Below, piece by piece: positions 33,205 to 55,003 of a DNA stretch of 64,000 nt. The notes under the pieces are model-generated. The model worked only from the letters and a program-made list of their open reading frames with translations. It was not told the DNA's origin and ran no database searches. The stretch's first letter is position 1. Every line of letters begins with the position of its first letter. The translations under genes and the position numbers were made by a program. Origin of the DNA: Syntrophales bacterium (GTDB taxonomy: Bacteria; Desulfobacterota; Syntrophia; Syntrophales; UBA2210); the NCBI GenBank assembly GCA_963666365.2, contig CAXXNF010000002.1:832001-896000 (forward strand), in the 5' to 3' direction.

Positions 33205-33260
33205 CTTTTATTTCAATATTTTTTAATTGCTTCTAAGCGGACGGTGAAAAACGGTTCAAA

Positions 33261-35300: not shown

Positions 35301-35315
35301 GATATTGAGAAAAAC

Positions 35316-36260: not shown

Positions 36261-36333
36261 GCCGGTTTCGTTCCGGAATTTCAAGATATTCAGTTATCAT
36301 TTTTATGTCGTAGATGGACATGGTTGCAGACAA

Positions 36334-37560: not shown

Positions 37561-37561
37561 C

Positions 37562-38686: not shown

Positions 38687-38767
38687 ACCTTTACTGTTCC
38701 GGGAAGCACCGTATTATGCAAAGAAAAGCCGAATCGATGCTTGCAGGTACTGACACGGGAACAACCT

Positions 38768-39961
38768 ATGAAAGGAAACAGAATTTTCATTTTTGCCTAC
38801 TGGCATGACACGAGATGGAAGAAGTTTGTCGGTGCAACGGTTAAAGCGTGGGACCTCGCACTCAATATGGCGAGGCTTCGTCAAGATGTTGTCTTATTTC
38901 TTCCCAAATACGGTTTTCCGGCCGACAATGACTCTTTTCAATTGGTCCAGGTGCCGGTACTCAATTTTCCGCTTTTGCGTTCCTTATCCTTCAATCTCTT
39001 TTTAATAATGTTTCTTGTCCGTTATTGCAGGAGATGTAAACCCGATGTCGTTTATATCCGCAGGGGCATTTCGATCGTTCCGGCTCTGTTCGCCAGGCTC
39101 AAGAAAGCAGTATTGATTTACGAGGTCAATGACGATCCCTATCCCGATAACAGGGAAAAAACAACCGGTTTCGTTTCCCGCTTTTCTTGGCGGATTGCCG
39201 TGAAGACCGACGAAATAGTCCTTTCGCTGTGCGATGCCGCCTTTATCATCACAAAAGAGATTAAAAACAAGTTGATCCGGCATTTGCCTGAAATCAATCC
39301 GGGGAAACTTCACATTCTGCCTAGCGGCACTAACACGGAACTCTATCGCCCATTGAATAAAATGGAGTGCCGTCGCGTAACTGGGCTCGATCCCGAAGCA
39401 AGATACATAGGATTTATGGGAACGCTCCTGGATCACCAGGGAGTTGATGTTCTGATCGATGCCGCACCATCCGTTATTCAATCCATCCCTTCCGCTGTTT
39501 TTGTCGTGATCGGGGAGGGTCCCATGAAGGAGCAGTGGCGGAAAAGAGTTTGTGACCTGTCTCTTCAGAACAATTTTTTGTTTACCGGTGAAGTCGACTA
39601 CGAACAAACCCCCTTATGGATAAATGCCATGGATGTTTGCACGGCACCATTCCTACTTCAGGCAGGATTGCGGTCTCCCGTCAAGATTTTCGATTACCTG
39701 GCCTGCGGCAGGCCGGTTGTTGCGTCGAGAGTTCCGGGCACGACGGACATCTTCGACGGTTCCGGTGCCGTTAGGCTCGTGGAACCTGAAAACATAGAGA
39801 CTTTCGTTGAAGCTGTCACCTTTTTCCTGCTGAATGGCAGGGTATCGGAGGCGGCAGGAATGGAAGGAAGAAAGCTGGTCGAAACCCATTACGACCGAAA
39901 GAACCTGGCCGGTCGAATAAAAAAAGAGGCCATTAGATTACTGAAGGCCAAAGAGCGTTGA
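38768..39961 (+). CDS. GT4-family glycosyltransferase
   Basis: YEVND, QGVDVLI, SPVKIFDYLACGRPVV. Confidence 0.88.
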   Translation: MKGNRIFIFAYWHDTRWKKFVGATVKAWDLALNMARLRQDVVLFLPKYGFPADNDSFQLVQVPVLNFPLLRSLSFNLFLIMFLVRYCRRCKPDVVYIRRGISIVPALFARLKKAVLIYEVNDDPYPDNREKTTGFVSRFSWRIAVKTDEIVLSLCDAAFIITKEIKNKLIRHLPEINPGKLHILPSGTNTELYRPLNKMECRRVTGLDPEARYIGFMGTLLDHQGVDVLIDAAPSVIQSIPSAVFVVIGEGPMKEQWRKRVCDLSLQNNFLFTGEVDYEQTPLWINAMDVCTAPFLLQAGLRSPVKIFDYLACGRPVVASRVPGTTDIFDGSGAVRLVEPENIETFVEAVTFFLLNGRVSEAAGMEGRKLVETHYDRKNLAGRIKKEAIRLLKAKER

Positions 39962-39991
39962 ACGTGATTTATTCCCGGGATATCGACGTTT

Positions 39992-41119
39992 ATGAAAAAA
40001 TCTTCTGAAATACGTGTGTTACACCTGATTGATTCCTCCGGCGTCGCCGGCGGAGAGCGCTATCTGTTCGACCTGATAAGGCATTCCGATCCTCTATTTG
40101 ATCATCACATTATTTTATCAACTGACGGTCCATTTGTCGGGATGCTGAAGGAGCATAACTGCCGATATACGTTGATCGATATGGAACCCAAATTTTCAGT
40201 CGATTCAATCCGGAGAATCAGAAAATACATTCGTGAGAATAAAATAGAAATCGTGCATACCCATAGCTACCGTTGTAATCTCTACGGCCGGTTGGCCTGT
40301 TTGTTTATGGGGGTTGTGAATCTAGCCACGGCACACGTTTCTCTTTACGATTATCTGGATACACCTCCTTTGGTGAGGCGCATTTATCTGATTGTCGAAA
40401 GAATCACATCTCTCATGGCTTCAAAATATATCTGCATATCCGCGGCAATGAGGGATGATCTTCGAAGAATGGGCATCAGCGATGAAAAACTGGTTGTCAT
40501 TCACAATGGAGTGGATCTTGATGCGTTTTACCCTCGCGCTCTCGACACAGTTCTTTTCGATGAACTGGGTATAGGCGACAATCGCCCCGTCATTGGAACA
40601 GTCGGACGAATGGTGACTGAGAAGGGACAGGTTCATCTGATTGATGCGTTACGACGTCTCGGCGCTCGATGGCCGCGTTTACGATGTCTCTTCATCGGTA
40701 CGGGGCCGCTTCTGGAGGAATTAAAAAAATATGCGAAAACATCGGGGCTCGCCGAAACCTGCATTTTCCCCGGCGTCCGCGCGGATATAGCCAATATTTA
40801 TTCTCTCATGGATATATTCGTCCTTCCCTCGATTCGAGAACCTTTCGGATTGGTGCTTCTGGAGGCAATGGCTTCCCGTGTGCCCATCATCGCCACGGCG
40901 TCCGGGGGTCCGCTGGAATTTATCAGGCCTTATTACAACGGTATACTTGTTTCTCCAGCAAATCCGGGAGAATTATCCTCCCAGATTGAATTTCTCCTGT
41001 CGCAACCCGTGCAATCCTCAGAAATGGCACAGCGCGGATATGAATCAGTCAAAGAAAAATACGGCATAAAGAATACCGTCAGTCAAGTATGTGACGTTTA
41101 TCTTTCATTTTTTAAGTAA
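39992..41119 (+). CDS. GT4-family glycosyltransferase
   Basis: GGERY, IHNGVD, GRMVTEKG, EPFGLVLLEAMA. Confidence 0.92.
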   Translation: MKKSSEIRVLHLIDSSGVAGGERYLFDLIRHSDPLFDHHIILSTDGPFVGMLKEHNCRYTLIDMEPKFSVDSIRRIRKYIRENKIEIVHTHSYRCNLYGRLACLFMGVVNLATAHVSLYDYLDTPPLVRRIYLIVERITSLMASKYICISAAMRDDLRRMGISDEKLVVIHNGVDLDAFYPRALDTVLFDELGIGDNRPVIGTVGRMVTEKGQVHLIDALRRLGARWPRLRCLFIGTGPLLEELKKYAKTSGLAETCIFPGVRADIANIYSLMDIFVLPSIREPFGLVLLEAMASRVPIIATASGGPLEFIRPYYNGILVSPANPGELSSQIEFLLSQPVQSSEMAQRGYESVKEKYGIKNTVSQVCDVYLSFFK

Positions 41120-41324
41120 AAAAGTTATTCTTGGAATACCTTTTATACTATGCTAATGCTTATGCTACACTTTTTGAGAATTGAGTTTTTTTGAAATTGC
41201 TGTAGTTTTAGTCTTGTTGCACAATTATTTGAAATGTTATGTGAATTTACATAGATCTTTTCGGTGGATAATTCTTATCGAGTCTTCTCTTCAAGTAATC
41301 GTAACAAATAAGCATTGTTCGATC

Positions 41325-41615
41325 ATGAAACAAAAGCGTAGACACAAAAAAATAAAGAGATCGAAACATCCTTTAAAAAACGAATGGAAGCAATTTCTTT
41401 TTGTTTTCGTCATATGCCTTGTAGTTGGTATTGCGTTTGCGTTTCTTACCGGCAAGATGCCGTCATTCCTTGACAGAACCATTCAAAAATACACAGATCG
41501 AATAGCGGCTGAACAAATCAAAGGATTCGAAAAAAAAGTGTTAAAAGAGGTAACAGGCGATAATCTTGATGTTGTCAAAAAGTACAAAGATGCGAAGACT
41601 GCCATTGACAACTAA
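41325..41615 (+). CDS. small single-TM hypothetical protein
   Basis: Basic N-terminus MKQKRRHKK, one TM, charged helical tail; stop overlaps that of the convergent gene. Confidence 0.55.
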   Translation: MKQKRRHKKIKRSKHPLKNEWKQFLFVFVICLVVGIAFAFLTGKMPSFLDRTIQKYTDRIAAEQIKGFEKKVLKEVTGDNLDVVKKYKDAKTAIDN

Positions 41616-43030
41616 TTGTTTATCTTATTATTTGTATCACAGGCCTTCATATGATGCACCTTCCGTTCATCTGTCGCTATCGAAGGAATCATTATAACAA
41701 CAGCAGTCAAAAACCAGAACGGTTCCATGATTCTGACGATAATGAATGTATTGGAGCCTACGGCATGAGCAAGCAAGGCTACAAATCCAGCCAAAAATCC
41801 CAGAGCAAGTCCATTAAAGAGGGGTTCCGTCGTGTTCCGGTATACGTGTAAGCCGCTTTTAAAAATGGTAATGAGCAGCCATACGAAAACAGACAAACCG
41901 ATCATTCCAGTCTCCACAATAACTCTTGGAAACTGCGCATCAAGGAATCTATATCCCGTAATACCATAGCCAAAAAGGGGGTGCCTGATAAAATCATTTG
42001 TGAGTACATTCTTCCATGATCTCAGTCTGTCCGATGTTGAGGTATCGATTCGTATTCCGGCAATTTCAATCTGTTCCTTATGATATCGCTGCGTGACAGT
42101 AAAAAGCACCCTCTCTTTTACCGCCTTAGGCAAAGAAAATGGAGCGAGTAAAATTACTGCAATCAGTATCGCAACTAATGCCAGTTTTTTCTTTGAAAAT
42201 AGTATAAGTGCGATCAGCATCGGAATGACCGCAATCCACGAGCTTCTTGAAAGGGTAGCCAACAGAGAAATCACAATTAGCACAGCAAGCACTGCAAGGC
42301 TTTTTTTGTAGCCTGTTGATTCCGATGTAGCCAGCAATCCCAAAACGATAGACAACATGAATACGAGATATCCACCCAGGGTGTTCGGCTCGCCCGTTCC
42401 CCCTTCAAACGGCGCGGTGACCCTCCCGCCCGCGGGGATTTGCGTAATCGCAACGAGACACACGATGCCGCATACGATCAGCATAACAGCGACGAATCGT
42501 TCGATCTGCTTTCGCTCTTTCAGGTGGTTCACCACCATAAAGTAGACGATGTAATATTCAAAATATTTAAGAACAAAGAAAAAACCCGTGGCAATTTTGA
42601 CCCGCCCCATCATGAAGCCAAGCATAGTTGAAATGAGGCAGATAGAGATATACGCAGCGATCGGGACATTCAGGGGCGTTTTCAGAAACAGGCCCAGCTC
42701 TTTGTTGATGGCGGTTTTGAAAAACCAGCCGAAGCCGATGACAACCAAAAGTACGTCGTCAAAACGTATGGTAATTCCGCGGCTTGCTGTCGCACTGCCT
42801 CCCGCCAGGCTGCCGATCATGAATTCCGGGCTGAGAAGCATCGAAACGATGAGAATGTAGAGTGCAACTTCCACGTTAAGGAAGCTGACCACAGCGACCC
42901 CTATTACGGCAGTAAGTAGAAGCGAGGCCGTAATCGATGCCTTTGCGATGATGAATCCGCAAAAGGCGGCTAACAGTATAATTGAGAGTATGGGAACGGC
43001 TGTCCTGATGGTGCTGGTATTTCCCCTCAT
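41612..43030 (-). CDS. Wzy/O-antigen ligase-family membrane protein
   Basis: Multi-TM; EPNTLGGYL, TLSRSSW, HPLFGYG, ETGMIG. Confidence 0.85.
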   Translation of the reverse strand: MRGNTSTIRTAVPILSIILLAAFCGFIIAKASITASLLLTAVIGVAVVSFLNVEVALYILIVSMLLSPEFMIGSLAGGSATASRGITIRFDDVLLVVIGFGWFFKTAINKELGLFLKTPLNVPIAAYISICLISTMLGFMMGRVKIATGFFFVLKYFEYYIVYFMVVNHLKERKQIERFVAVMLIVCGIVCLVAITQIPAGGRVTAPFEGGTGEPNTLGGYLVFMLSIVLGLLATSESTGYKKSLAVLAVLIVISLLATLSRSSWIAVIPMLIALILFSKKKLALVAILIAVILLAPFSLPKAVKERVLFTVTQRYHKEQIEIAGIRIDTSTSDRLRSWKNVLTNDFIRHPLFGYGITGYRFLDAQFPRVIVETGMIGLSVFVWLLITIFKSGLHVYRNTTEPLFNGLALGFLAGFVALLAHAVGSNTFIIVRIMEPFWFLTAVVIMIPSIATDERKVHHMKACDTNNKINN

Positions 43031-45813
43031 GGCACGTTATTTTTGTCGATAAAGGCACTTTCAGTAATTTGTAACACATGGCTTCCGGGATATTGCCGGT
43101 CCAATTTACCGTCGTGCAAGAAAGACAACGCCTTGTCCTTGTCACCATATGTGCCGATAAATACGGCATGCCAAAGGCCGCTGCTTTTACTGTTATAGAC
43201 ACTTACCCAGGCGTCAATACCCGTGGTCTTCAATGATCTGGCCAGGCGTTTCGCATTACCGGCCTCCCGAAACGAGCCGATACGGATGGTGTAGTATCCG
43301 TATTTTTTATGATCTTCACGCGTTGATTCGGTATTGCGCTCCGTCTCTATATTACTTTTTTGTTCTCCCCCTCTGTGTTCTTCCGCAATGACCGGATCTG
43401 GATCACCTTTCTTCACAGCAGCTGCAGGAAGGTCTATTTTTTTTCTCACGATCGGCTTCGCGTCAACGTCAGAAGATGCAGTCGAATTGCCGATGGCGCT
43501 GTCTTTCCACAGCGGAATCACCATTTCCGGAAGGTGTATCAGATCAAATCTGTACAGCGCGTGAGCGCCGAACAACAGCAGGATGAGGAAAAGAATCCAC
43601 ACTTTTACTGCAGGCAAGGCTATTTTTGAAATTTTTCGTTTGGGTGTGTTTTCGTCCTCGCCATAATATTTATAGTATTTGTAATAATCATAATCGGTGA
43701 AGTCAGGGCTTATTTCTGGATTGAGGCCATTAAGCACAACGCCGACGATGTGTGCCGTTGCCCTGTTGAGTTGCGCAACGGCCTGTTTGAGGGTGCCCCT
43801 TCCTACTTTTCCCACTCGATATACCATAGCGATGGCGTCTGAAATCGATCCCAGGATTGCGGCATCCGCGGCGGAAAGAACGGGCGGGGAATCAAGAATG
43901 ATAACGTCGTACTCTTTCTGTGCTTCATCAAGAATCGCCCGGAAGGTCCCTGTGCTCATAAGTTCGGCAGGATTGGGGGGCATGGTGCCGCATGTGATTA
44001 TATTTAAATGATCCAATCCCGGTGTTGTCATAATTTCATCAACAGTCATTTTTCCAACCATGAGATCCGAAACGGTGTTGACCGTATCTTTCCAAAAGTA
44101 ATTCCCCAGGATGACATCGGATAATCCAGGCACTTGATTTATCCCGAACATTTTGGCGATCATCGGTTTTCTCATATCCGCGTCGATAAGGAGCACGTTT
44201 TTCCCTGTTTGTGCGAGTGCAACAGCAAGATTGGCCACAATGAATGTCTTGCCCTCTTGCGGCGAAGAGCTTGTAAGGGTTAGTGTCCTGATATTTTTAC
44301 CGAGCCCGGAGAAACTGAGATTTGTGCGGAGTGTTCTGTAATTTTCCGCAAGCAGCGATTTCGGCGCGTAATGGGAAATAAGCCGCGAATATCTTTGAGC
44401 GGTTTCAGTGTCAATTTCCTCTGAACCGTCTCTTGCTATGGATGCCTTAATTTCGTTGACATCCACGTGCGGGATAAGTCCGATCACCTGGGTGCCGGTA
44501 TATTCTTCTATTTCGGCGATATCGCCAATGGAGGTATCGAAGGTTTCAATCACGAAGGCAAGCAGGGTACCCACGATAAGTCCAATAAGAATGCCGGCAA
44601 ACCCTATTGCCGCCGTTTTAGGAGGATTTATCGGGCGCCCCGGTGCAAGGGCAGGTTTCACAATTTGTATTTCCTCTATCTTCTCGGCTTCTTTAATGAG
44701 AATTTCCTGGTACTTGGTCTCAAGAAGCATGTATAATTCTTTATTTATCCGCACATCCTCTTCCAGTCGACCCAGCGCAAGGCTTCTTTCAGGAAGTGTC
44801 TTTATTTTCGAATCTATTTCATCGATCCTCTTTTGCAGCGCTGCGATATGGGCCTCGAGGATTTTATGCTGATGCTGCAGTTCCGACTCCATGCGGGCGG
44901 TAATTTCTTGTATTGCCTTGTTTATTTCTATTACCCGGGGATACTCCTCGGTATAGGTAATAAGAAGCGTATCTCGCTCCATCATTAATTTTATCAGCTG
45001 ATCGTTAAGCCCTTTATAGAGAGGTGATGCATCGGGGATAAAGTAGCTCGTCTTGGCCGCAAGAGCGGTTTTTCCCGATTTATTGAGTATTGTGGCGGTG
45101 TTTTCTATTGTCTGTAATGCCTCTGTTGTCTTTTTATAGGTATCCTGCAACGACGCATATTGATTCAGAAACTGCGAAGTCTGGGAAGCAACCGCCAAAA
45201 GCTGGTGTTCCTCCCTGAATTTTCTCACGGTATCTTCCGCAATTCTCAGCTTTTCTTTCACTACCTGCAGTTGACCTTCAATAAAGGCCTTTGCATCGGA
45301 AGTCCGTTTGTTCAAGTCAATAAAATGATGTTCTTTATGGACACGTGCGATTGTATTGGCAAGATCGCGCGCAAAGGCGGGATCAGCCGACGTCACCGAG
45401 ATGTTCAGAATGTTGCTGTATCCCTCCTGTTCGGTTTCGATACTGTCACGTATATTGAGTACTATCTTTTGATATTTCAAATTCCTATGTATCTCTTCCG
45501 ATGAAACGTCTGCAGGAATGAGTCCCAGCTCTTTTGCCGCCAATTCAACGATATGATAGCTTTTAATGATTGTTGCCTGGGTTCCCATGTAATCCGTTGG
45601 AGACCATGAAACCGCCTGAACATAAAGGCCTGTAACGGAGCTGGTTTTTTCGATCTTGATGCTTGCAGTGGCCTGGTAGAGCGGCACAGGCTGCCACAGC
45701 ATTGAAAAGAGGACGCTGAAGAAGGCGGTGCATACCACGGCGGCGATAATAATGTATTTCCTCTTCCTGACAACCCTCCAGTAATCACGAAGATTCAGAT
45801 CGTATTGCGCCAT
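43027..45813 (-). CDS. wzc: Wzc-type BY-kinase / polysaccharide copolymerase with extra C-terminal TM and SPOR-like domain
   Basis: N-terminal TM, coiled coil, TM2, Walker A SSSPQEGKT, A' DADMRKP, B IILDSPP, Tyr cluster DYDYYKYYKYY, then a hydrophobic segment and YTIRIGSFREAGNA...WHAVFIGTY. Confidence 0.88.
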   Translation of the reverse strand: MAQYDLNLRDYWRVVRKRKYIIIAAVVCTAFFSVLFSMLWQPVPLYQATASIKIEKTSSVTGLYVQAVSWSPTDYMGTQATIIKSYHIVELAAKELGLIPADVSSEEIHRNLKYQKIVLNIRDSIETEQEGYSNILNISVTSADPAFARDLANTIARVHKEHHFIDLNKRTSDAKAFIEGQLQVVKEKLRIAEDTVRKFREEHQLLAVASQTSQFLNQYASLQDTYKKTTEALQTIENTATILNKSGKTALAAKTSYFIPDASPLYKGLNDQLIKLMMERDTLLITYTEEYPRVIEINKAIQEITARMESELQHQHKILEAHIAALQKRIDEIDSKIKTLPERSLALGRLEEDVRINKELYMLLETKYQEILIKEAEKIEEIQIVKPALAPGRPINPPKTAAIGFAGILIGLIVGTLLAFVIETFDTSIGDIAEIEEYTGTQVIGLIPHVDVNEIKASIARDGSEEIDTETAQRYSRLISHYAPKSLLAENYRTLRTNLSFSGLGKNIRTLTLTSSSPQEGKTFIVANLAVALAQTGKNVLLIDADMRKPMIAKMFGINQVPGLSDVILGNYFWKDTVNTVSDLMVGKMTVDEIMTTPGLDHLNIITCGTMPPNPAELMSTGTFRAILDEAQKEYDVIILDSPPVLSAADAAILGSISDAIAMVYRVGKVGRGTLKQAVAQLNRATAHIVGVVLNGLNPEISPDFTDYDYYKYYKYYGEDENTPKRKISKIALPAVKVWILFLILLLFGAHALYRFDLIHLPEMVIPLWKDSAIGNSTASSDVDAKPIVRKKIDLPAAAVKKGDPDPVIAEEHRGGEQKSNIETERNTESTREDHKKYGYYTIRIGSFREAGNAKRLARSLKTTGIDAWVSVYNSKSSGLWHAVFIGTYGDKDKALSFLHDGKLDRQYPGSHVLQITESAFIDKNNVP

Positions 45814-45834
45814 TCAACGGAATCCTTTTCCCTG

Positions 45835-47022
45835 TCAATCCACCCTTTTAAAGCGAAGATGATCGCTGTTGAAGTAAGAATCTCTATAACTGCCCGGATA
45901 CAGAAAGTAATCAAGAAGCGGCACCGTATTGGTGATGAACTCATTGATGTCGCCTATGACGGTCCTGGGCACGTACACCACATCGCCATTCAGAAGCGCA
46001 ATGTTTTGTGAAATATCGCCCTGTTTGAGCACCTCGTCAAGGTTTGCGGAAATAACCAGGGGTTTCCTGTCATTTGCCACATATCCCCGAATGACCTTTA
46101 TGTCGGTATCTACGGCTATCCTGGTTGTACCGCCCGCCAACGACACTGCGGCAAGAAGATCATGGGCGTCCTTGAGCCGGTAGATTCCCTGCGATGCAAC
46201 TTCGCCGAACACGTAGACGCGCTCTCCGTAGACCGGCAATTCGGGAACGGTGACGATGTCTCCGCTATCGACAACAATATTTTGACTTGTGTCCCCTTTC
46301 ACCATCACGTCGAGCAGGTTCACGGTGTATTTCCTGCCTTTTCTTACGACCTCCACATGACGTAAATCAGCGTTCGCGTATTCCTGGCCCGATATAGCGC
46401 CACCGGCCATTGTAATCAAATCTATTAAGGTGGTCTTACCTTTCAAATAATACGTGCCCGGTCCCGACGCCCTGTAATCCGCGCTGTTTATCTGGCCCAG
46501 AAGAAGCGCACTTTTGCTTTTATAATCTTTTATCATCACTTCGATTCTAGGTGTTTTTATGTATTTTTTTAACGCATTCGTCAGGAGATCATCGACCTCT
46601 CCTGCGGTACGACCGTCAACCATGACATCATCGATAAAAGAGTAGGAGATTTTGCCATCCGGCCGCACCACCGTTTCGTATTCCTGAACCTGGTTCCCTT
46701 CCATGCTTCGAATGAGAAGTACATCGTCGGCGCCGATTTTATATTCCGGAATTCCTCTCTTTTCGGTAAATACACTGTTTTCAGTAGCCGAACTCATCTC
46801 GGCAATCTGTTGTTTTTCGACTGCCCTCTTCTCATTGGATTGCCTGTCCTGATTTTGTACATTACTGACATATTCCCGTGCAGGTATGCCCCGTGCTTCA
46901 AAACTGCAGGCGTATACCGATAAGATGAATATTCCCATGCACATACCAATCATGACACTGCGCACGCGCAGGTATAATTTGACTTTATTTTCTGTGATCA
47001 TTCGGCTCTGTTTCATTTCCAT
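45835..47022 (-). CDS. wza: Wza-like polysaccharide export lipoprotein (PES plus SLBB domains); start uncertain
   Basis: Lipobox-like VYAC, EYKIGADDVL, VRPDGKISY, GDIVTVP, GDVVYVP. Confidence 0.87.
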   Translation of the reverse strand: MEMKQSRMITENKVKLYLRVRSVMIGMCMGIFILSVYACSFEARGIPAREYVSNVQNQDRQSNEKRAVEKQQIAEMSSATENSVFTEKRGIPEYKIGADDVLLIRSMEGNQVQEYETVVRPDGKISYSFIDDVMVDGRTAGEVDDLLTNALKKYIKTPRIEVMIKDYKSKSALLLGQINSADYRASGPGTYYLKGKTTLIDLITMAGGAISGQEYANADLRHVEVVRKGRKYTVNLLDVMVKGDTSQNIVVDSGDIVTVPELPVYGERVYVFGEVASQGIYRLKDAHDLLAAVSLAGGTTRIAVDTDIKVIRGYVANDRKPLVISANLDEVLKQGDISQNIALLNGDVVYVPRTVIGDINEFITNTVPLLDYFLYPGSYRDSYFNSDHLRFKRVD

Positions 47023-47036
47023 GCAACTGATTCATT

Positions 47037-47119
47037 TTCTCCCACAGAGACGACGAGATGCAGAGAAAAACATTTTTTCATTTTTTGCTGTCCTCAGCGC
47101 CGCTCCGTCTCTGGGCGAA
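47037..47119. repeat. degenerate palindromic intergenic element
   Basis: TCTCCCACAGAGACGACGAGATGCAGAG ... CTCAGCGCCGCTCCGTCTCTGGGCGAA; arms are roughly complementary. Confidence 0.45.
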
Positions 47120-47624
47120 AGTATGTTCTTTTTTCTGTACTCTGCCCAAGAAATTGTGAGTTATTACACGCTTTTTAATCTTGCTCGCAATTTCAAGCTC
47201 TTACAGCATTTTTTCCATTCTGTCAATGCAAGGCTATTCAAATATTGAGTGATTATAACCCATTGTAACTGCATCAACAAGGGATATAATCCTTCCCTCA
47301 ATTACATTAGGCATATTATAAAAGCAGCACATCCTGGCAAATACCATATTCCGTCCAGAAGAAATACAAATTATTCTTGTCAATCCTTGTGTAAATGTGT
47401 AGTATCGCGACCTAACTTTGCATTCGATATTGTACGCAGCGGTTTAGTTGCTCTGTGGTCGTTCTTTGCTATGAGACCTGAAATCCGCTCACACACAGAC
47501 CTGTAATGACCCGCTCGCCCACTGCGGTCAAAAAAATAATTTGCATTGTAATCCTTTCGGAGTGAAACTATTGTGCAGCGGTTGCCCTAAAAAAGGATAT
47601 GCATGTTGAGGAATTTCGGATTCC

Positions 47625-48512
47625 ATGCTCAAATTATATTCTGAGATACTACAATATCTTGCCGAATTCAGATCTTACGCACTCGATGATAAAGTGCTTG
47701 ATATTAGGCCCGCGATAGAATTTGTCACATTCTTGACAGGAAACCATGAGCACATCGAGCAGTATTATATATCGACACTACAATCTAATCCCAATGAAGA
47801 CTTTTTTCTCTCTCATCAGGCCAATGCGCTTGCCTATGCTCTCAAGATAGGTCGAGGCTTGAAATACGCTCCTGAAAAACTCCATGAACTCGGTTTGGCA
47901 GCACTGCATTATGATGTAGGGCTCCTTAAAATACCTGATTCAATAAAATATAAGGAAGGTGAACTAAGCGATCTGGAATTAAAAACGATACAGACACATG
48001 CCGAAATAGGCAGCATTATCTTGTCCGCCTATCAAGAACAGTATCCCTTTCTCTCACGGGCTGCGCTCGAGCATCATGAACGGGAAATGGGTCAAGGCTA
48101 TCCTTCAGGATTAAAGGGGAATGAAATCAGTGAATATTCCAAAATAATCGGAGTGGTGGATATATACGAGGCCATGATTCATAAAAGACCCTATAGAAAA
48201 GCCTACCTTCAGCATGATTCAATCAAACGGATCCTTAATTCAAAGGGACAACTCTTTCCCCCGTACATAATAAAGGCGCACCTCGAAGAGACAGGACTGT
48301 ACCCGCTTGGAAGTTATGTAAAACTGAACAATGGAGTAATCGGCCGGGTTTGCGCCGTCAACAAGTCGCACCCATTGAAGCCGGTTGTTATATTGTTGTT
48401 TGACAGCAATGGCCGCAAAATGGCAGGGGATAGTAAAATCAATCTTGGAGAACATCCTATCCTCTATATCACAGAAGCGATTGACATGGAAAATCTGCCC
48501 TATGATCGGTAA
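47625..48512 (+). CDS. HD-GYP domain protein with a degenerate HD motif
   Basis: ALHYDVG in place of LLHDIG, HHEREMGQGYPSGLKG, DIYEAM..KRPYR, GLYPLGSYVKLNNG tail. Confidence 0.85.
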   Translation: MLKLYSEILQYLAEFRSYALDDKVLDIRPAIEFVTFLTGNHEHIEQYYISTLQSNPNEDFFLSHQANALAYALKIGRGLKYAPEKLHELGLAALHYDVGLLKIPDSIKYKEGELSDLELKTIQTHAEIGSIILSAYQEQYPFLSRAALEHHEREMGQGYPSGLKGNEISEYSKIIGVVDIYEAMIHKRPYRKAYLQHDSIKRILNSKGQLFPPYIIKAHLEETGLYPLGSYVKLNNGVIGRVCAVNKSHPLKPVVILLFDSNGRKMAGDSKINLGEHPILYITEAIDMENLPYDR

Positions 48513-48632
48513 AAAATGCAGGGCGGGGATAATGAATATATTGATGTTGACATATGGGTGTTGTGGGGCTAGTTTAGTTTTAAATTCTTTTTACCTGTGG
48601 TGTATGATCACCGGAGAAGAACTGGAATTTCT

Positions 48633-48890
48633 ATGAAAGATGATCCCATCATGGCAGAAGTCGACGGTGAAGGCATGATTATCGATGTCGACCGCGGGAC
48701 CTGTTATTTCCTGAATGAAACCGCGCTGCTTATTTACAAGATGGTAAAAGACGGCAAAGGCAGCCGCGAGATCAGGGATGTGCTGACACGGGACTATGAT
48801 GTCGACGAAGGAGACGCTGAGAGCGACATAACTGCTTTTTTGAAGCAGTTACAAAGCAAGGCTGCAGCATGGGAAAAAAGAGATACGTAA
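48633..48890 (+). CDS. PqqD-family RiPP recognition element (RRE)
   Basis: 85 aa; YFLNETALLIYKMV, YDVDEGDAESDITAFLKQL. Confidence 0.9.
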   Translation: MKDDPIMAEVDGEGMIIDVDRGTCYFLNETALLIYKMVKDGKGSREIRDVLTRDYDVDEGDAESDITAFLKQLQSKAAAWEKRDT

Positions 48891-49129
48891 AACCGGAAAT
48901 CAGGGAGGAATCCCAGATTCTTACCGTAAGGGCATGGGTCACCGCAACGGCCCAGGTGTTGACGCAGCCGACGACTGAAACGAGCGTTTCCCTGCAGAAT
49001 GTCGCAGAATCGGTATCATCGACCAGTCAGGCATTACAGGAGAGGGTGACGAAAACCAGTGTTGCACAGCAGACCGTCATCACGAGAACCGGTGTCGCCC
49101 TGCAGAGAGTCCTTTCCCGGCAAAGATGA
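48869..49129 (+). CDS. putative RiPP precursor peptide
   Basis: 86 aa between the RRE and radical SAM genes; leader KKRYVKPEI (YxxP); repetitive S/T/V/Q-rich core. Confidence 0.8.
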   Translation: MGKKRYVKPEIREESQILTVRAWVTATAQVLTQPTTETSVSLQNVAESVSSTSQALQERVTKTSVAQQTVITRTGVALQRVLSRQR

Positions 49130-49170
49130 TACCCAGGCAATGACACCCGCCTATTGAGCCATAGCTGTCA

Positions 49171-50133
49171 ATGTTACAAACCATAGCCATAGACATAACA
49201 AACTACTGCAATTTCGATTGCATCCACTGCATCAGGGATAAAATTTCACCACGGGCCCATATGGATGCGACATTGCTGAGAGATATTCTTGAACAGATTA
49301 CCTCCGTCGGCATCGGGGAAGCGTGCCTTACCGGCGGAGAACCTGCTCTTCATCCAGAACTCGGTCCCATCGTTAAGAGCTTTTGCGACTACGGCGTGCA
49401 TTTCAGCCTGGTCAGCAACGGATTTCTCTTTGAGGAGTCGATCCTTCCTCTCTTTGACAGGAACGTTCAAAACTACCTGACGGGCGTCAGTTTCAGTCTC
49501 GACGGCGCGACGGCGGCGACTCATGATATGTTGAGGCGCAAGGGAAGTTTCGAACGAGTCATCAGCTCTATCAAGGCATGCACACTAAAAGGGATTTCCG
49601 TATCCGTCAAGAGTATCGTTCATAGAGAAAATATGCACGAAATCGTCGATGTCGCCGTGTTATGCGCCTCCCTTGGCGTTGAAAGTCTCGGATATGTGCT
49701 TCTCACGCCTACGCCGCGGATCATCCAACAGTGCCTTATGCCGAGCGCCGAAGAGTATGAAGCGGTTACCAGACGCATTACCGGAAGGATTGCCCCTTCC
49801 TTCGCAATGATCATTAATATGGAAGGGTACGCCGATCCTGATTTTCGCGTCCCCTTCTGTAATCCCGCCCAGGGGCTTTCGGTAGACCACGAAGGAAACC
49901 TAATATTTTGCTGCAATCTCTCTCACCCAACCGCAGGTGATAGGCCTGATACGTTCGGAGAAGAATATCTCGGCAACATCAGTGACATTGGGATTGAGGA
50001 AGGAATACTGAGGCACTACAGGAAGTTTGCCTGGTTTATGAGCAAAGTGATGAACTCGGGCCCGGCCGGACTTGAAGAAAGAAACTGCTCGGCCTGTTTT
50101 CGCCTCTTCGGCAAGCAGGATTGGATGAAATGA
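49171..50133 (+). CDS. radical SAM peptide maturase 1 with a short Cys-containing C-terminal domain
   Basis: CNFDCIHC, LTGGEP, SNG, FSLDG; C-terminal PFC...IFCC...CSAC. Confidence 0.9.
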   Translation: MLQTIAIDITNYCNFDCIHCIRDKISPRAHMDATLLRDILEQITSVGIGEACLTGGEPALHPELGPIVKSFCDYGVHFSLVSNGFLFEESILPLFDRNVQNYLTGVSFSLDGATAATHDMLRRKGSFERVISSIKACTLKGISVSVKSIVHRENMHEIVDVAVLCASLGVESLGYVLLTPTPRIIQQCLMPSAEEYEAVTRRITGRIAPSFAMIINMEGYADPDFRVPFCNPAQGLSVDHEGNLIFCCNLSHPTAGDRPDTFGEEYLGNISDIGIEEGILRHYRKFAWFMSKVMNSGPAGLEERNCSACFRLFGKQDWMK

Positions 50134-51143
50134 AAGCCCCGACGATCGATATCGTTAATTTCTGCAACTTCTCATGCCGGCACTGCCTTGTAGAAAAATC
50201 GGCGCCACCCCTCTTTATGGACAGGCATCTCTTCTCCCATCTCATGGATCAGATAGGACGTCTCGGTTTCAGATATGCCGGCATCACAGGGTCTGGAGAG
50301 GTGTCGCTGCACCCCCAGATAGAAGATATCCTGTTCAGCCTTGCAGAACACAATATCGGGTTTGAAATGCTTACCAACGGATTCTTGTTTAAGGAGCGCC
50401 TGCTTCCGTTGCTTAAAGATCCGATGATCAGGAAACGAGTCTGTTTGATCGGGTTCAGCCTTGACAGCGCACGGGAGGAGGTGCACGACAACAACAGAAA
50501 GGAAGGCAGTTTCAGGAGAATCATCGAGGCGATCGGATTGTGCCGACTGCTCGGAATACCTTTTTATATCAAGACTGCGGTGACAAACATCAACAAACAC
50601 GAGCTGAGAGACATTCTTCTTTTTACCTCCGGTCTGGGCGCCTTTTCACAGTCATTCCTTTTTCTTCAGCCGACGAGGCGATTGTTGACAGAACAACTCA
50701 GTCCCGACCCCCATGAGTTGTATCGCCTGTTCACGGAACTCAGCTCCTGGCGCCGGATATATCCCAGATTAAAACTGGAGGCTTTCAATACATCGAATGA
50801 TCTCTTCTCTTGCAACGCCTTTTTCAAATGCGGCGTCGATGAAGTGGGAAACTATCTTATCTGCAACAATCTCAGCAATGTGGGAACTTCAGAAGAAACC
50901 TACAAAGGCCCGGAATGTATCGGGAACATAGCAAACGAGTGTCTGGAAGACCTGATAGTGCGGCATCTCAACCTCCTGCCGGAAATTCTCAAGTGGCGGT
51001 TTGACCGTAAGGACATGATTAAGAATGCACCCCTCTCACTGTGCAACTGGTGTTTTTACCAGTTTAACAAACTGGACTGGTTAAAAAATGATTTTCCCGA
51101 CTCACCATGGACACGATGCTTAACCTCAACATTTACGGATTGA
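50130..51143 (+). CDS. radical SAM peptide maturase 2 (paralog of 1)
   Basis: CNFSCRHC, ITGSGE, TNG, FSLDS; C-terminal FSC...LIC...CNWC; ATGA overlap with maturase 1. Confidence 0.9.
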   Translation: MKAPTIDIVNFCNFSCRHCLVEKSAPPLFMDRHLFSHLMDQIGRLGFRYAGITGSGEVSLHPQIEDILFSLAEHNIGFEMLTNGFLFKERLLPLLKDPMIRKRVCLIGFSLDSAREEVHDNNRKEGSFRRIIEAIGLCRLLGIPFYIKTAVTNINKHELRDILLFTSGLGAFSQSFLFLQPTRRLLTEQLSPDPHELYRLFTELSSWRRIYPRLKLEAFNTSNDLFSCNAFFKCGVDEVGNYLICNNLSNVGTSEETYKGPECIGNIANECLEDLIVRHLNLLPEILKWRFDRKDMIKNAPLSLCNWCFYQFNKLDWLKNDFPDSPWTRCLTSTFTD

Positions 51144-51808
51144 AGGTTCAATTACACTTTGCGTCCTGGAGTGACGAAACCAAGGCAGCCGATCTATTCG
51201 CGCTCTTTTTGAACGACGATCACGACGAGGCGGACGTTTCTTTCGAGTTTGGGAAAAATGTGGCGAGACAGGAAATAGCCCGTCATCTTTTTCCTTTTCT
51301 TGCTGAAAGGGAGATATGGGCAATCCATTCAGGGGGGTTTCATTACCATGGCGGGCATCTGACGGTAGGACCTTCCAACTGCGGGAAATCGACCTTCAGC
51401 TACATGGCCGCAAAAAACGACCTCTTTCTCTTGAGCGATGATATTACCCTGATGAAGGATACCGCATCCGGTGTGGAAGTTCTCCCCTTTTACTCGGCAC
51501 TCTATCTGAAACATAAGGTGATTTTACCGGATTCTAGTATTTTCAAGCCCACCCTGCTCAAATACCTCCTGCTGCCGCGATTCAGCAAAGGCGCGTTTTG
51601 CATCAGAAAAATTGAGCAACGCAGCGACCTGCTGCGCCAATTAGTACCCCAATTCCTCTGGTCATACAACAAAAGAGAGCAGGAAAAACAAAAGAGATTT
51701 TTAGAATTACTATGCAATTATCCGGCATTTGAAGTATATTGGAACGAAACGATGTTTGACGATCATCGGTTATTGAGGGACGTACTTGATGCAATTGTTC
51801 AAAATTGA
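51107..51808 (+). CDS. HPr kinase-related P-loop Ser/Thr kinase
   Basis: AIHSGG, GPSNCGKST, LLSDD. Confidence 0.75.
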   Translation: MDTMLNLNIYGLKVQLHFASWSDETKAADLFALFLNDDHDEADVSFEFGKNVARQEIARHLFPFLAEREIWAIHSGGFHYHGGHLTVGPSNCGKSTFSYMAAKNDLFLLSDDITLMKDTASGVEVLPFYSALYLKHKVILPDSSIFKPTLLKYLLLPRFSKGAFCIRKIEQRSDLLRQLVPQFLWSYNKREQEKQKRFLELLCNYPAFEVYWNETMFDDHRLLRDVLDAIVQN

Positions 51809-52196
51809 AGGAAACTCCATGTATCCTCTGCTCAAACACAATGACATGGTCATCGTCGCTCCCCTGTCGGCCGAGCGGCTGAAAACAGGAAACATTGTCG
51901 TATTTAAGAAAGATGCACCCGAATATATTGTTCACCGCCTAGTAAAACGAACAGGAGGCGGCAAGATGCTCTTCCGGGGAGACGGCTATAATCTGCCCTT
52001 GGAATTGATAGGGACAAATGCCGTTGTGGGAAAAGTGACTGGAAGGATCAGGGCGGGGGAATTGATACGTGTCAGCCGCTCCAAGGAATGCGGCTCATGG
52101 GCCATTGCCATGATTAAGGAACGGGTTAAGCGTCTTCTGATGAAGGGCCAACGGGTGGTGCAAGAGGACAGCACATCCGTTTCCGATTATTTGTAA
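51789..52196 (+). CDS. soluble S26/S24-type peptidase (Ser/His)
   Basis: GNSMYP, IVHR, RGDG; no N-terminal TM anchor. Confidence 0.8.
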   Translation: MQLFKIEGNSMYPLLKHNDMVIVAPLSAERLKTGNIVVFKKDAPEYIVHRLVKRTGGGKMLFRGDGYNLPLELIGTNAVVGKVTGRIRAGELIRVSRSKECGSWAIAMIKERVKRLLMKGQRVVQEDSTSVSDYL

Positions 52197-52225
52197 CCTC
52201 GCGCCCGGCGAAATGGAAATGCAAG

Positions 52226-52702
52226 ATGGAAAGACGATCGTTCATCAAGACAATACTTGTGGTTACGGCTCTCCTGCAGGGACTGCCGGCAAGGTTGGTG
52301 TGTTTCGGTGGGAACCGCGCCCTTGCCTCAAACAACCACGACTCGCACGAGACCGATTTTACAGGTTCATATTTTACGGGAACGATTGACCACAGGATCT
52401 TAATACCTGAAGAACTGCGTAGTCCATTAAAAAAAACAGGATTTTATGTTGTCGGCCTGAAAGCCCATGGTGTGCTTCTTGTTTCTGCACAGAGTCCGCT
52501 TATGGAACTCTTCGACGAAATAAAGGATTCCACGCTGTTCCGGGAAGACTTTTTACTGCTCCGAGAGGATAATCTCTTCATAGGCAATGACGGCTATCTG
52601 GTCATTCCTCCGGAAATGCGAAATTTTGCCGGCATCAAAACAGGAAAAGTCTCCATAATCGGACGGCGGAACCTGATCGAAATAATAAATTACGGCGAAT
52701 AG
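52226..52702 (+). CDS. MraZ-like (AbrB fold) protein with a twin-arginine-like N-terminus
   Basis: MERRSFIK + hydrophobic stretch + ALA; FTGSYFTGTIDHRILIPEELR and GYLVIPPEMRNFAGI...VSIIGRRNLIEI resemble the two MraZ repeats. Confidence 0.65.
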   Translation: MERRSFIKTILVVTALLQGLPARLVCFGGNRALASNNHDSHETDFTGSYFTGTIDHRILIPEELRSPLKKTGFYVVGLKAHGVLLVSAQSPLMELFDEIKDSTLFREDFLLLREDNLFIGNDGYLVIPPEMRNFAGIKTGKVSIIGRRNLIEIINYGE

Positions 52703-52823
52703 AAAAGAATTCGAGCATGCAAATGCCGGATCACAACCCGTCAATCCGTTGAAATACCTCCGTTCATCGGCAATAATCGGCGGGCTCTGTTCAACGGACC
52801 CATGATGATGAGACATTGCGTCA

Positions 52824-53996
52824 ATGAAGATGAGACATGAAAAGGAACGGGATGTAGTGCGCACCCTCGCACGACAGTCATTGAGCCAAGACGACGCACT
52901 CAGACTTAAAGAATCCCTGGACGATGCAATTCAATGGCCCTTCATCCTGCGTAGCGCAATTGATCAGGGGATTGCTCCGCTTTTGTTTCATCATTTCAAT
53001 AATCTTGCGCTTATGGAGACACTGCCGGCCTATGTACGGCAAGTATTTTCAAGGCTTTACGGCGAAACGATGCTTCTGAACAGGCACATAACGGCGGTGC
53101 TGTCTGAGTTGGAGAAGGCATGTGAAGGAAGCGAGATTCGGGTAATCGTTTTTAAAGGTGCGGCGCTGCTTTCCACCGTGTACCGAGATATCGCCCTGCG
53201 GCCCATGGAAGACATCGATCTCATGGTCCGACCGAAACAAAAGGATACCGTACAAGCAATCCTTAGTAAACGGGGGTTTGTTCGCGACCCGCTCTATCCT
53301 ATGACCTTCAGACGAGGCGTTATTACTGTGGATGTGCACGATGATTTCCTCTCCACCCACAGGATCCGGAGCCGCCGAAAAATAATGAATGTGCACATGG
53401 ACGATGTCTGGGCGAGATCGATTCCCCTCAATGAAAACCTGCGCCACATTTTCCGTCTTTCTCAGTACGATAACCTTTTAGCCCTTTCATTCCATATTTT
53501 GAAACATCGATTTTCCCGACTGATCTGGTTCGCGGATATCAGGGAATCAGTCAATGCCGGCGATACAATTTTCGGCTGGACCGGATTCCTCGATTACGTC
53601 GATGACGTGGGGGCGCACAAGATCGTGCTTTACGCGTTACTGCTGGCGAAACATCTTGTGACGATGGATGTGCCGGATTATGTGCTGCAGCGCCTTGGAA
53701 AGGATGCTCTCTCGACCCTTGAACACACCATCCTGCGACTTAGATTGGCAGACGCCGATCCGAGGACTGTAATAGATTTGTTATGGATATTTCAAATACC
53801 GGGGGGGGTGAGACGGTTGCAATTTATTTTTGAAAACATATTTCCCAGACAAGAAGTCATGAACCAGATATTCCCTGGCTCATCTCTTCCGGTACACACG
53901 TTTTTGAGGCGGGCAATCATCACCGGATCACGGGTATTCATTGATGGGGCTTCAGCATTCAAATTTGTTGCGAAGGGCGGGCTTCCTCCCCTGTGA
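52824..53996 (+). CDS. nucleotidyltransferase-family protein (NTP_transf_5-like)
   Basis: VFKGAAL...YRDIALRPMEDIDLMV, VDVH, LIWFADI. Confidence 0.85.
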   Translation: MKMRHEKERDVVRTLARQSLSQDDALRLKESLDDAIQWPFILRSAIDQGIAPLLFHHFNNLALMETLPAYVRQVFSRLYGETMLLNRHITAVLSELEKACEGSEIRVIVFKGAALLSTVYRDIALRPMEDIDLMVRPKQKDTVQAILSKRGFVRDPLYPMTFRRGVITVDVHDDFLSTHRIRSRRKIMNVHMDDVWARSIPLNENLRHIFRLSQYDNLLALSFHILKHRFSRLIWFADIRESVNAGDTIFGWTGFLDYVDDVGAHKIVLYALLLAKHLVTMDVPDYVLQRLGKDALSTLEHTILRLRLADADPRTVIDLLWIFQIPGGVRRLQFIFENIFPRQEVMNQIFPGSSLPVHTFLRRAIITGSRVFIDGASAFKFVAKGGLPPL

Positions 53997-54079
53997 CGAC
54001 CGGGAATATGCATCCTTTCCGCACACTGACGGCACTCATTGTTTTTTAACGCCGCTGCTCTACAAAAGGAGATTTTCAC

Positions 54080-55003
54080 ATGAACGAAACCTGCCGACTT
54101 GTTACGCGAAGCGATTTTGACGGGCTTGTGTGCGCCGTCCTTTTGAATGAACTGCACCTTATCGACGACATTGTCTTTGCCGAACCGGGCGATTTGCAGC
54201 AGGGACTCATACCGCTGACCGATCGAGACATTACCTGCGATCTTCCCTTCATGCCCGAAGTTCACCTCGCCTTCGACCATCACGCAAGCGAACTCACACG
54301 GGTCGGACAATGTATCGACAATCACGTCATAATTGCTCAGGCGCCATCCACCGCCCGCGTCGTCTACGATTACTACGGCGGGGCAAAGGCATTCCCTCAC
54401 ATATCCGAATACTTGATGAAGGCTGTCGATAGAATAGATTCGGCCCGTTTAAGCCGCGAAGAGATTCTTCATCCCGCAGGCTATATATTGTTGGGATTCT
54501 TAAGCGATCCACGCACCGGTCTTGATTTATTTGAAGGTTTCGCGCTCTCCCATACCGCATTTCTCATGAAACTGATCGATACGATCGGTCGCCGGGAAAT
54601 CCATGAAATTCTCGAAATTCCCATGGTCAAGGAACGGGCTTCGCTTTATTACGAGCATGCAAAGCCTTTTAACCATCTGATAAAACGTTGTGCCTCCGTT
54701 CACGGGAATGTAGTTGTTTTCGACCCTCGCGGTGAAACCGGCCTCTATATAGGCAACCGATTTGTCATCTATGCACTGTATCCCGATTGTAACGTCAGCA
54801 TCACCCTCACCCAGCGGCATGACGGATTTACATCTCTCTCAGTGGGAAAATCGATTCTTGACCGCAGCTCGTCGGCGAAGATAGGCGACATACTTCTTGC
54901 CTTTAACGGGGGCGGCCACGACAATGCGGGATCCTGTCGCGTCGAAAACAACCTCGTCGATACGGTGCTTCGGGAACTCATCTCCATTTTCAAGGCGGCC
55001 TGA
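54080..55003 (+). CDS. DHH-superfamily phosphoesterase (exopolyphosphatase/nanoRNase-like)
   Basis: RLVTRSDFDGLVC, FDHH, GGGH. Confidence 0.88.
   Translation: MNETCRLVTRSDFDGLVCAVLLNELHLIDDIVFAEPGDLQQGLIPLTDRDITCDLPFMPEVHLAFDHHASELTRVGQCIDNHVIIAQAPSTARVVYDYYGGAKAFPHISEYLMKAVDRIDSARLSREEILHPAGYILLGFLSDPRTGLDLFEGFALSHTAFLMKLIDTIGRREIHEILEIPMVKERASLYYEHAKPFNHLIKRCASVHGNVVVFDPRGETGLYIGNRFVIYALYPDCNVSITLTQRHDGFTSLSVGKSILDRSSSAKIGDILLAFNGGGHDNAGSCRVENNLVDTVLRELISIFKAA

Follow-up and report, generated by a model that had tools for sequence, protein, structure and literature searches.

Linear polyphosphorylated peptides (LPP) are encoded by lppA-K-B-S-D-N clusters that have been called restricted to Bacillota (Popov et al., Nat Commun 2026; PMC13381572). 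In the published account, the LppA precursor starts with a leader of consensus YxxPxVLxHQxIxFETxxS, within which the motif [Y/W]xxPx[L/V/I/F/A] binds a discrete recognition element for peptides that are synthesized ribosomally and modified after translation (RiPPs). This RiPP recognition element (RRE), LppB, uses N33 and D70 to hold the Pro kink and the Tyr of the leader. An HprK-like kinase polyphosphorylates Ser3 of the core, and a SipW-like peptidase cuts after T-1 in an RRE-dependent manner, with F-3 lodged in a hydrophobic cleft. The clusters also encode an MsbA-like pump and an NTP transferase without detected activity, and they lie in capsule loci, the final products and their role being given as not known (PMC13381572). 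Here, we describe a related gene cassette found in a 64,000-nucleotide stretch of a Syntrophales bacterium (contig CAXXNF010000002.1; hereafter the window, meaning this whole stretch). At its centre stands a short open reading frame (ORF) with 11-residue repeats, a candidate RiPP precursor, which is followed by genes for two radical S-adenosylmethionine (radical-SAM) enzymes, rSAM1 and rSAM2.

Judged from its sequences, the cassette is a radical-SAM-bearing relative of the LPP clusters, and we call it LPP-like. As far as the LPP main text and supplements describe their system, a discrete PqqD-type RRE, a YxxPx[VIL] leader motif and a polysaccharide-locus setting are common to both, and so are an HprK-fold kinase, a SipW-like Ser/His/Asp peptidase and an NTP_transf_5-type transferase, the latter three recognized here from sequence and structural models. 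There are differences as well. Two radical-SAM enzymes and a protein with a twin-arginine translocation (Tat) signal are added here, and the MsbA-like pump is absent, with no ABC-transporter domain in the ORFs of 46886-55003 or 31732-47022. Core position 3 is A or Q instead of the Ser of LPP, the distance from the leader Tyr to the proposed -1 Thr is 19 residues instead of 15, and the core is a T/S/V/Q hendecad array, whereas the LppA core of P. alginolyticus is Gly/Asn-rich. The hosts are Syntrophales/Desulfobacterota-type metagenome-assembled genomes (MAGs), not Bacillota. The words "Radical", "repeat" and "Desulfo" do not occur in the main text of the LPP paper; in its supplements "Radical_SAM" appears once, as a column name in a domain matrix, and a single Thermodesulfobacteriota peptidase is present, a singleton without a precursor (PMC13381572). 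No published description of this radical-SAM-bearing cassette was found in the literature searched, in which a peptide-modifying cassette of this kind beside a polysaccharide-export locus is thus previously undescribed.

On balance, we lean towards the reading that the ORF encodes a RiPP-type precursor with a one-piece hendecad core of about 61 residues, which would be modified iteratively by the radical-SAM enzymes on an amphipathic helix and would have its leader removed. The ORF is a real, conserved coding gene. Its translation is identical to the one quoted in an initial annotation of this DNA, and the composition reported there (13 T, 12 V, 10 Q, 9 S, one W, and no C, D, H or F) is also what we count. 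A search of 5.8 billion proteins returned 37 homologues of 65-99 amino acids (aa), with E values from 3.8e-25 to 2.2e-5; those with a named source belong to MAGs of Thermodesulfobacteriota, Syntrophales or Desulfatiglandales. When a profile was run against 1.84 billion representatives, 13 of the 18 matches were more distant members with the same leader (P0039-P0051). In the alignment of 38 sequences, the first 25 residues (MGKKKYIKPDIREESQILTVRAWVT) are invariant or almost so, and the remainder of the peptide is variable. Thirteen coding sequences show the same split at the DNA level: dN/dS is 0.04 in the leader and 0.38 in the core (pS about 0.6). In Pfam and NCBIfam the peptide has no match at E <= 0.01, and the sole one at E values up to 10 is DUF5398 (0.091).

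The leader contains the motif Y6-V-K-P9-E-I11, which fits the [Y/W]xxPx[L/V/I/F/A] pattern bound by LppB; over the 38 sequences P9 is invariant, and Y6 and I11 are conserved in at least 90%. We propose that the leader (aa 1-25) docks through Y6-x-x-P9-x-I11 on the PqqD-type RRE encoded just upstream, and that the RRE would then present the peptide to the enzymes of the cassette. The PqqD gene is conserved and overlaps the peptide start in all 38 fetched loci (by 22 nt here, counted to the RRE stop), and this overlap suggests that translation of the precursor is coupled to that of the RRE. The top NCBIfam matches of the RRE are lasso PqqD chaperones, all under their cut-offs. Its profile finds the lasso proteins TbiB1 (E 7e-12) and TfuB1 (E 7e-9) in the Protein Data Bank (PDB) and, more weakly, the 2026 PqqD-family chains 9x90_B (6.6e-7) and 9x8z_B (2.8e-4). 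In a by-eye comparison with LppB, the equivalents of N33 and D70 (N28 and D65 of our RRE alignment A3) are invariant here. Modelling of the RRE with the leader had been put forward in the initial annotation as a check. A complex prediction with leader residues 1-40 scored 0.42, far above the best control (0.04) and still inside the range, up to 0.60, that counts as weak; the same score is reached by 116 of 157 solved complexes and by 2 of 215 mismatches. At least 82% of the contacts agreed between runs, with a partner pLDDT of at least 56. Solved RRE-leader complexes exist, so that model memory may add to this score, and we regard the prediction as weak support for docking.

In the genomes that were searched, the family is rare and its distribution patchy. 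Scanning 185,579 species genomes for the pattern yielded 11 loci, the window's own genome has a single copy of the precursor, none was found in 40 relatives (E values of 0.086 or worse), and the family profile had 0 matches in 400 other sampled genomes of the phylum. Such rarity could also be expected if the ORF were no enzyme substrate at all, and encoded a small protein with a regulatory or scaffolding role in the polysaccharide locus, one that happens to sit between the RRE and radical-SAM genes. Against this idea, to which we give hardly any credence, speak the lasso/LPP-type RRE motif in the leader, the overlap of its start with the RRE gene, and the combination of a conserved leader with a variable core, which is typical of RiPP precursors.

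The core had been parsed in the initial annotation into five imperfect 11-residue repeats. Core self-similarity, examined at lags 1-35 against 1000 residue shuffles, is highest at lag 11 (z 5.0 by BLOSUM, 5.5 by identity), with a second peak at lag 25 (11+14; z 4.2), and no other lag rises above z 2. A position matrix trained on the family places four units in this protein, starting at aa 37, 51, 62 and 73 with spacings of 14, 11 and 11. Four of the five repeats are thus clear, and the first falls below the matrix threshold and is degenerate at best. This degenerate N-terminus of the core nevertheless holds T27, T35 and T36, each conserved in at least 90% of the 38 sequences. The 14-residue spacing that underlies the lag-25 signal is kept across the family: the three-residue insert after unit 1 is conserved, and a longer subgroup has 18 residues there. 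The 33-nt period claimed for the DNA is present as well, with ACC codons at 49022, 49055 and 49088. At lag 33, codons 26-86 are 42% identical to themselves (z 4.0 relative to codon shuffles); at lag 75, z is 3.4. Tandem Repeats Finder reported no repeat because the DNA copies of the units are merely 27-67% identical, and the period is at the DNA level detectable only by statistics.

Across 61 distinct members of the family, 175 units give the consensus x-[T/S]-[S/N]-[V/Y/Q]-A-[L/V]-Q-x-[V/A/I]-[L/V/I/F]-T. The best-kept positions are S/N3 (90%), T/S2 (88%), Q7 (81%) and A5 (68%). The Thr at position 2, described earlier as invariant, is so within this protein, and family-wide it is T in 61%, S in 27% and V in 11% of the units. 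Repeat number varies among homologues, a point that the initial annotation had proposed to test: no clear unit was found in four proteins, one unit in a single protein, two in 12, three in 27 (P0004 is of this type), four in 16 and five in one, P0049, so that 56 of the 61 members have two to five. By self-similarity, lag 11 exceeds z 3 in 23 of 38 proteins, lag 25 alone does so in 8, and neither in 7, P0035-37 included. Even the locus L021, 99% identical to this one, differs within the array, unit 3 having R in place of K62.

Two unusual proteins were seen in the course of these searches. P0053 (173 aa) is without the family leader and consists of about nine near-perfect tandem 11-residue copies of the type ESSYALTENLT; these resemble the ESSYAVLSQLT unit of the family, and the protein matches the family profile at E 6.9e-4. 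P0042 (188 aa) has the usual leader and three units, after which comes a Pro/Thr/Arg-rich tail of about 100 residues.

Is the core one chain, or is each 11-residue unit released as a separate short peptide? The initial annotation had left both options standing. The variation in repeat number would suit a multi-core precursor, and so would the four loci in which a single enzyme set is preceded by a tandem pair of precursor genes whose cores differ (L011, 8001-8674; L022; L033, 3554-4075; L035, 2959-3489), which are not four independent cases, the peptides of L022 being those of L011. Against release, the units abut directly and have no conserved flanking cleavage motif. In addition, among 15 proteins of the 14/11/11 layout, the same unit is 0.50 identical between proteins, as compared to 0.33 for units within one protein and 0.32 for different units between proteins. 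Each unit index thus has its own signature, and the duplication must be old, every unit having kept its own identity, in keeping with the low identity of the DNA copies. As aligned, such old, position-specific units look like the opposite of recently expanded multi-core cassettes. Finally, the cassette encodes one peptidase only, SipW-like and of the type that makes a single RRE-guided leader cut in the LPP system as described (PMC13381572). The long, periodically modified chain is the alternative that we retain, and processing into single units appears to us very improbable. According to the preferred reading, the core of about 61 residues would stay uncut, and its four clear copies and one degenerate copy would derive from an old internal duplication of the 11-residue unit.

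Such an array may serve to display copies of one short motif at in-phase positions along an amphipathic helix. AlphaFold2 (AF2) with the 38-row alignment predicts helices at residues 11-32 and 36-85 (mean pLDDT 71). The spacings (11, 14 and 18 residues) amount to roughly 3, 4 and 5 turns of a helix and would preserve one alpha-helical register. The family-mean hydrophobicity spectrum (n=44) has a power of 34-41 at 98-102 degrees and 26-33 at 66-72 degrees, and it falls to 6 and 3 at 164 and 180 degrees, respectively. On an 11/3 wheel, A5, V9, T2, L6 and L10 share a single arc (33-164 degrees), and opposite to it S/N3, Q7, T11 and V/Y4 form an i+4 ladder, in which S/N3, Q7 and T11 are the best-conserved polar residues. 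These predictions are consistent with a helical core and do not prove it. Hendecad (11/3) helices are found in apolipoprotein and alpha-synuclein repeats, and type I antifreeze peptides have Thr every 11 residues. The present core resembles them in the 11-residue period of its predicted long helix and in the Thr that recurs every 11 residues on one face, a likeness of pattern only, and it differs from them in having a RiPP leader and dedicated enzymes. The precursor profile matched nothing in the PDB other than the HR1 coiled coil of coronavirus spike (5yl9_A, TQTSQALQTV...), at non-significant E values of 2.3 and 5.6, a likeness that seems to be one of composition and pattern only.

The same observations can be turned into the main rival of the reading that we prefer. 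The repeats could be purely structural, forming an amphipathic hendecad helix or a coiled coil through which the peptide assembles with itself or binds to surfaces or polysaccharide. In that case the radical-SAM enzymes would modify a single site, such as one near the conserved PTT/T27 region, or would have a substrate in the polysaccharide pathway that is not a peptide. The AF2 helix, the spacings in helical register and the hydrophobic arc on the wheel are all accounted for in this way; T27, T35 and T36 are kept more strongly than most repeat positions, the spike HR1 likeness (E 2.3), non-significant as it is, shows that such a composition can form helical bundles, and the LPP kinase, as described, acts on one residue near the core N-terminus (PMC13381572). 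What makes us consider a purely structural role unlikely, for all these points, is that the top positions of the unit, S/N3 (90%) and Q7 (81%), are polar, beyond the needs of an amphipathic pattern, and that the two radical-SAM genes accompany the peptide wherever a locus extends far enough to include them. Conservation at these polar positions hints at a more specific role than amphipathicity.

Several findings weigh against a core that is modified once per unit on a helix within an LPP-type system, and they have to be stated together. Position 4 of the unit is variable (V 50%, Y 34%, Q 12%), so that no side chain is obvious as a universal radical target. Four of the 61 members have no clear unit, and P0035-37, which come from contigs outside the fetched loci, show no period of any kind; P0041 is likewise counted as aperiodic. 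The core block has a moderate AF2 pLDDT of 62-85 with a pTM of 0.34, its composition (T, V, Q, S) is not classically helical, and the hydrophobicity spectrum of this protein alone peaks at 68 degrees (power 75) over 100 degrees (power 32). The sequence of the RRE is nearer to the lasso B1 proteins than to other solved PqqD-family chains. Lastly, the leader does not have the full consensus of the LPP leader as published, sharing with it only YxxPxI and a later aromatic-x-Thr (W23-V24-T25).

The two radical-SAM enzymes are paralogues. Both have a CX3CX2C motif followed by conserved C-terminal cysteines, in rSAM1 Cys 230, 247, 248, 306 and 309 (conserved in 13 of 13 sequences), and in rSAM2 Cys 231, 248, 266, 308 and 311. 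The C-terminal pattern is CX16CC (rSAM1) or CX16C (rSAM2) plus a CX2C, and the canonical CX2CX5CX3C SPASM motif is in neither enzyme. Their NCBIfam matches are to generic SPASM/twitch-type models, among them ScmF, tungsten-cofactor maturase, AhbD, NirJ2, StsB, WgkB, AlbA, PqqE and MftC, the top ones at 50-84 bits against cut-offs of 265-850. A comparison with solved structures gave generic matches for rSAM1 (BlsE, SkfB, PqqE) and, by sequence search, no match for rSAM2. None of these similarities assigns a known chemistry to either enzyme.

A precedent for iterative action on repeats is found in TvgA/TvgB and TigB/TigE, where, as described, radical-SAM cyclopropylglycine synthases act once per repeat on precursors of about 60 aa with up to five repeats, and where the TIG cluster encodes two radical-SAM enzymes (PMC10878394). 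By analogy with TvgA/TigB, the two enzymes of the present cassette may act iteratively, about once per unit. They are not candidates for the same reaction. Cyclopropyl synthases have a strict GYW motif and a seven-Cys SPASM domain with CX2CX5CX3C (PMC10878394), and GYW occurs in 0 of 13 rSAM1 and 0 of 12 rSAM2 sequences, which have only five conserved C-terminal Cys and one CX2C. The system also differs from TvgB/TigE, as described, in that the RRE is a separate protein and unit position 4 is not always Val or Ile.

In proteusins of the polytheonamide type, too, radical-SAM genes lie beside a long core that has no Cys and much Val, Ala, Gln and Thr, and this core has the same features. Thus, one or both enzymes might epimerize the core periodically and so produce a D/L-patterned chain, a beta-helical pore or fibre. 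Both enzymes are small, with a single auxiliary Cys set, and in size they resemble a YydG-type epimerase. We find epimerization quite improbable here. No NHLP or Nif11 leader was detected, as the peptide matched nothing in Pfam or NCBIfam at E <= 0.01, and the context is LPP-like; the Pfam scan reported no B12 domain for either enzyme; no epimerase model is among the best 25 of the 61 and 38 NCBIfam matches of the two; and a conserved alpha-helical register would be pointless if D-residues broke the helix.

A more specific version of the iterative reading, which we offer as a long shot, is that the radical-SAM enzymes install one side-chain crosslink or C-H functionalization per hendecad on the i+4 ladder (S/N3, Q7, T11, V/Y4'), for example Thr/Ser-to-Gln. 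The peptide would in this way become a multiply stapled amphipathic helix, which would then be phosphorylated or nucleotidylated and would join or prime the neighbouring exopolysaccharide. Cys and aromatic residues are the usual partners in radical-SAM crosslinks, and here the two enzymes are paired with a substrate that has no Cys and almost no aromatics. If this were true, the chemistry would be new among RiPPs, and a capsule pathway would have a peptide as one of its components. The natural variants with 2 to 5 units form a built-in ruler, on which the scaling of modification with unit number could be read.

The kinase gene encodes a protein with the motifs of a P-loop kinase. HprK_rel_A and HprK_rel_B match weakly (E about 0.002-0.004) in 9 of 10 members of its family, and its sequence found nothing below E 0.35 among solved structures. 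Its AF2 model (pLDDT 74, pTM 0.75) matched PEPCK (E 3e-7) and HprK/P (1ko7, 3e-5; also 1kkl, 2qmh and 3tqf) in Foldseek, and by its predicted fold it is a PEPCK/HprK-type P-loop kinase. Together with the NTP_transf_5 protein it may decorate Ser/Thr residues, as in LPP and paeninodin systems. Since a kinase and a nucleotidyltransferase are both encoded in the cassette, the search for adducts of +80 Da or nucleoside monophosphate on the repeat Thr, suggested in the initial annotation, is an apt one.

The peptidase is probably the leader peptidase, by analogy with LPP. It scores just below the cut-off of TIGR02228 (E 1.1e-13, 51.3 bits against 51.85), its S11, H50 and D66 are invariant in 16 of 16 sequences, and its motifs GNSMYP, VHR and RGD resemble those of LppS when compared by eye with Supplementary Data 1 of the LPP paper. 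Its N-terminus, read by eye, has no hydrophobic stretch, and we picture it as a soluble SipW-like Ser/His/Asp peptidase that would remove the leader once the core has been presented. Cleavage is predicted after W23-V24-T25, because of the analogy with F-3/E-2/T-1 of LppA.

A kinase with a nucleotidyltransferase is the typical tailoring pair of paeninodin-type lasso peptides (PMC13381572), and the RRE here is most like lasso B1 proteins (TbiB1). A lasso peptide was nevertheless rejected: the core is far longer than a lasso core, and no Pfam domain of a macrolactam synthetase or of a B2 transglutaminase-type peptidase was found in the ORFs of the cassette, the unassigned ones having been searched to E 10. 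PqqD homologues with paired radical-SAM enzymes or HprK-related kinases also occur in the SynChlorMet, GeoRSP and HPr-rel-A systems of NCBIfam. The scores set the present proteins apart from these, with ScmF at 84 against a cut-off of 400, the GeoRSP radical-SAM model at 68 against 400, geo_PqqD at 21 against 100 and PqqD_rel_X at 24.5 against 35.

Synteny ties these genes to the peptide. When the proteins of the window were compared by tblastn with the 11 genome loci, the order PqqD, peptide, rSAM1, rSAM2, kinase, peptidase, NTP_transf_5 was found in all nine that have enough downstream DNA, L010 and L017 being cut short. The occurrence of homologous precursors beside radical-SAM homologues, named in the initial annotation as a check, is also borne out by metagenome loci: rSAM1 lies directly downstream of the peptide in 25 of 27, and the other two contigs stop at the peptide. 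Nineteen of the 27 extend as far as rSAM2 and 13 as far as NTP_transf_5; L023-L026 share one identical peptide and are not independent. In L011 the match to rSAM2 is split in two (9740-10905) with a gap of about 100 nt, for which a frameshift, an insertion or an assembly error is possible. The features of the locus are listed in the table.

Table. Features of the precursor cassette and its immediate surroundings, in window coordinates.
Feature	Position	Strand	Remarks
Wzy-like polymerase, Wzc-like chain-length/tyrosine-kinase protein, Wza-like exporter	41612..47022	-	End of polysaccharide locus
HD_5 (HD-GYP-like) phosphohydrolase	47625..48512	+	PF13487, E 6.6e-28
PqqD-family RRE	48597..48890	+	Pfam PqqD, E 7.7e-13; likely true start ATG 48633
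Precursor peptide ORF	48869..49129	+	86 aa
Leader MGKKRYVKPEIREESQILTVRAWVT	48869..48943	+	aa 1-25; YxxPxI RRE-binding motif; near-invariant over 38 sequences
Core N-terminus, first unit of the initial annotation, ATAQVLTQPTT, degenerate	48944..48976	+	aa 26-36; missed by unit matrix
Unit 1 ETSVSLQNVAE and insert SVS	48977..49018	+	aa 37-47 and aa 48-50; 14-residue spacing; unit matrix
Unit 2 STSQALQERVT	49019..49051	+	aa 51-61; unit matrix
Unit 3 KTSVAQQTVIT	49052..49084	+	aa 62-72; unit matrix
Unit 4 RTGVALQRVLS, basic tail RQR and stop codon	49085..49129	+	aa 73-83 (unit); unit matrix
Radical-SAM enzyme 1 (rSAM1)	49171..50133	+	320 aa; Pfam Radical_SAM, E 4.8e-23
Radical-SAM enzyme 2 (rSAM2)	50121..51143	+	340 aa; paralogue of rSAM1, about 33% identity
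HprK/PEPCK-fold P-loop kinase (by predicted fold)	51107..51808	+	233 aa; motifs GPSNCGKST, LLSDDITL
SipW-like (archaeal-type) signal-peptidase-I homologue	51786..52196	+	Peptidase_S24, E 6.4e-9
158-aa protein, twin-arginine-like N-terminus MERRSFIK	52226..52702	+	Weak TAT_signal and MraZ matches
NTP_transf_5 nucleotidyltransferase-fold protein, LppN-like	52824..53996	+	PF14907, E 5.1e-44

Next to the cassette lies a polysaccharide locus that begins near 31732, with six glycosyltransferases, a methyltransferase and a Wzx-type flippase upstream of the Wza/Wzc/Wzy-like genes. Wza/Wzc-like neighbours were also seen in L016, L018, L020, L021, L033 and L042. We propose that the product of the cassette works with the neighbouring polysaccharide/capsule machinery, and the recurring Wza/Wzc/Wzy link bears on the role of LPP-type peptides in capsule or biofilm biology. 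With this cassette, the LPP-type logic of leader, RRE, SipW-like peptidase, kinase and transferase is seen in anaerobic Syntrophales/Desulfobacterota-type bacteria.

The remaining neighbours are less regular. The HD_5 gene adjoins the cassette in 3 of 11 genome and 9 of 27 metagenome loci, its side and orientation varying; its product could be a cyclic-di-GMP phosphodiesterase linked with the polysaccharide genes, or a phosphatase that acts on the peptide. The protein with the Tat-like signal is present in 8 of 9 complete genome loci and missing from the loci of the 80-aa-peptide type (L015, L034, L036) and from L040, and in most homologues its N-terminus reads RRDF[LI]K. The ESM Atlas gave no usable match for it or for the precursor peptide. 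The junction between the precursor and rSAM1 folds into no unusual RNA hairpin (z -0.40), and no terminator-like site was found on the plus strand between 47000 and 55200. Downstream of the cassette, a 307-aa protein (54080-55003) matches DHHA1 weakly (E 0.064) and contains a DHH-like "FDHH" stretch; L021, the near-identical locus, is the only one in which it is conserved. A phosphoesterase near a kinase-bearing cassette may be relevant. Further away, at 20760-28797, the window encodes an activase of glycyl radical enzymes, with Radical_SAM and ferredoxin domains; after it come two PFL-like glycyl radical enzymes in tandem (814 and 836 aa) and an AMP-binding ligase.

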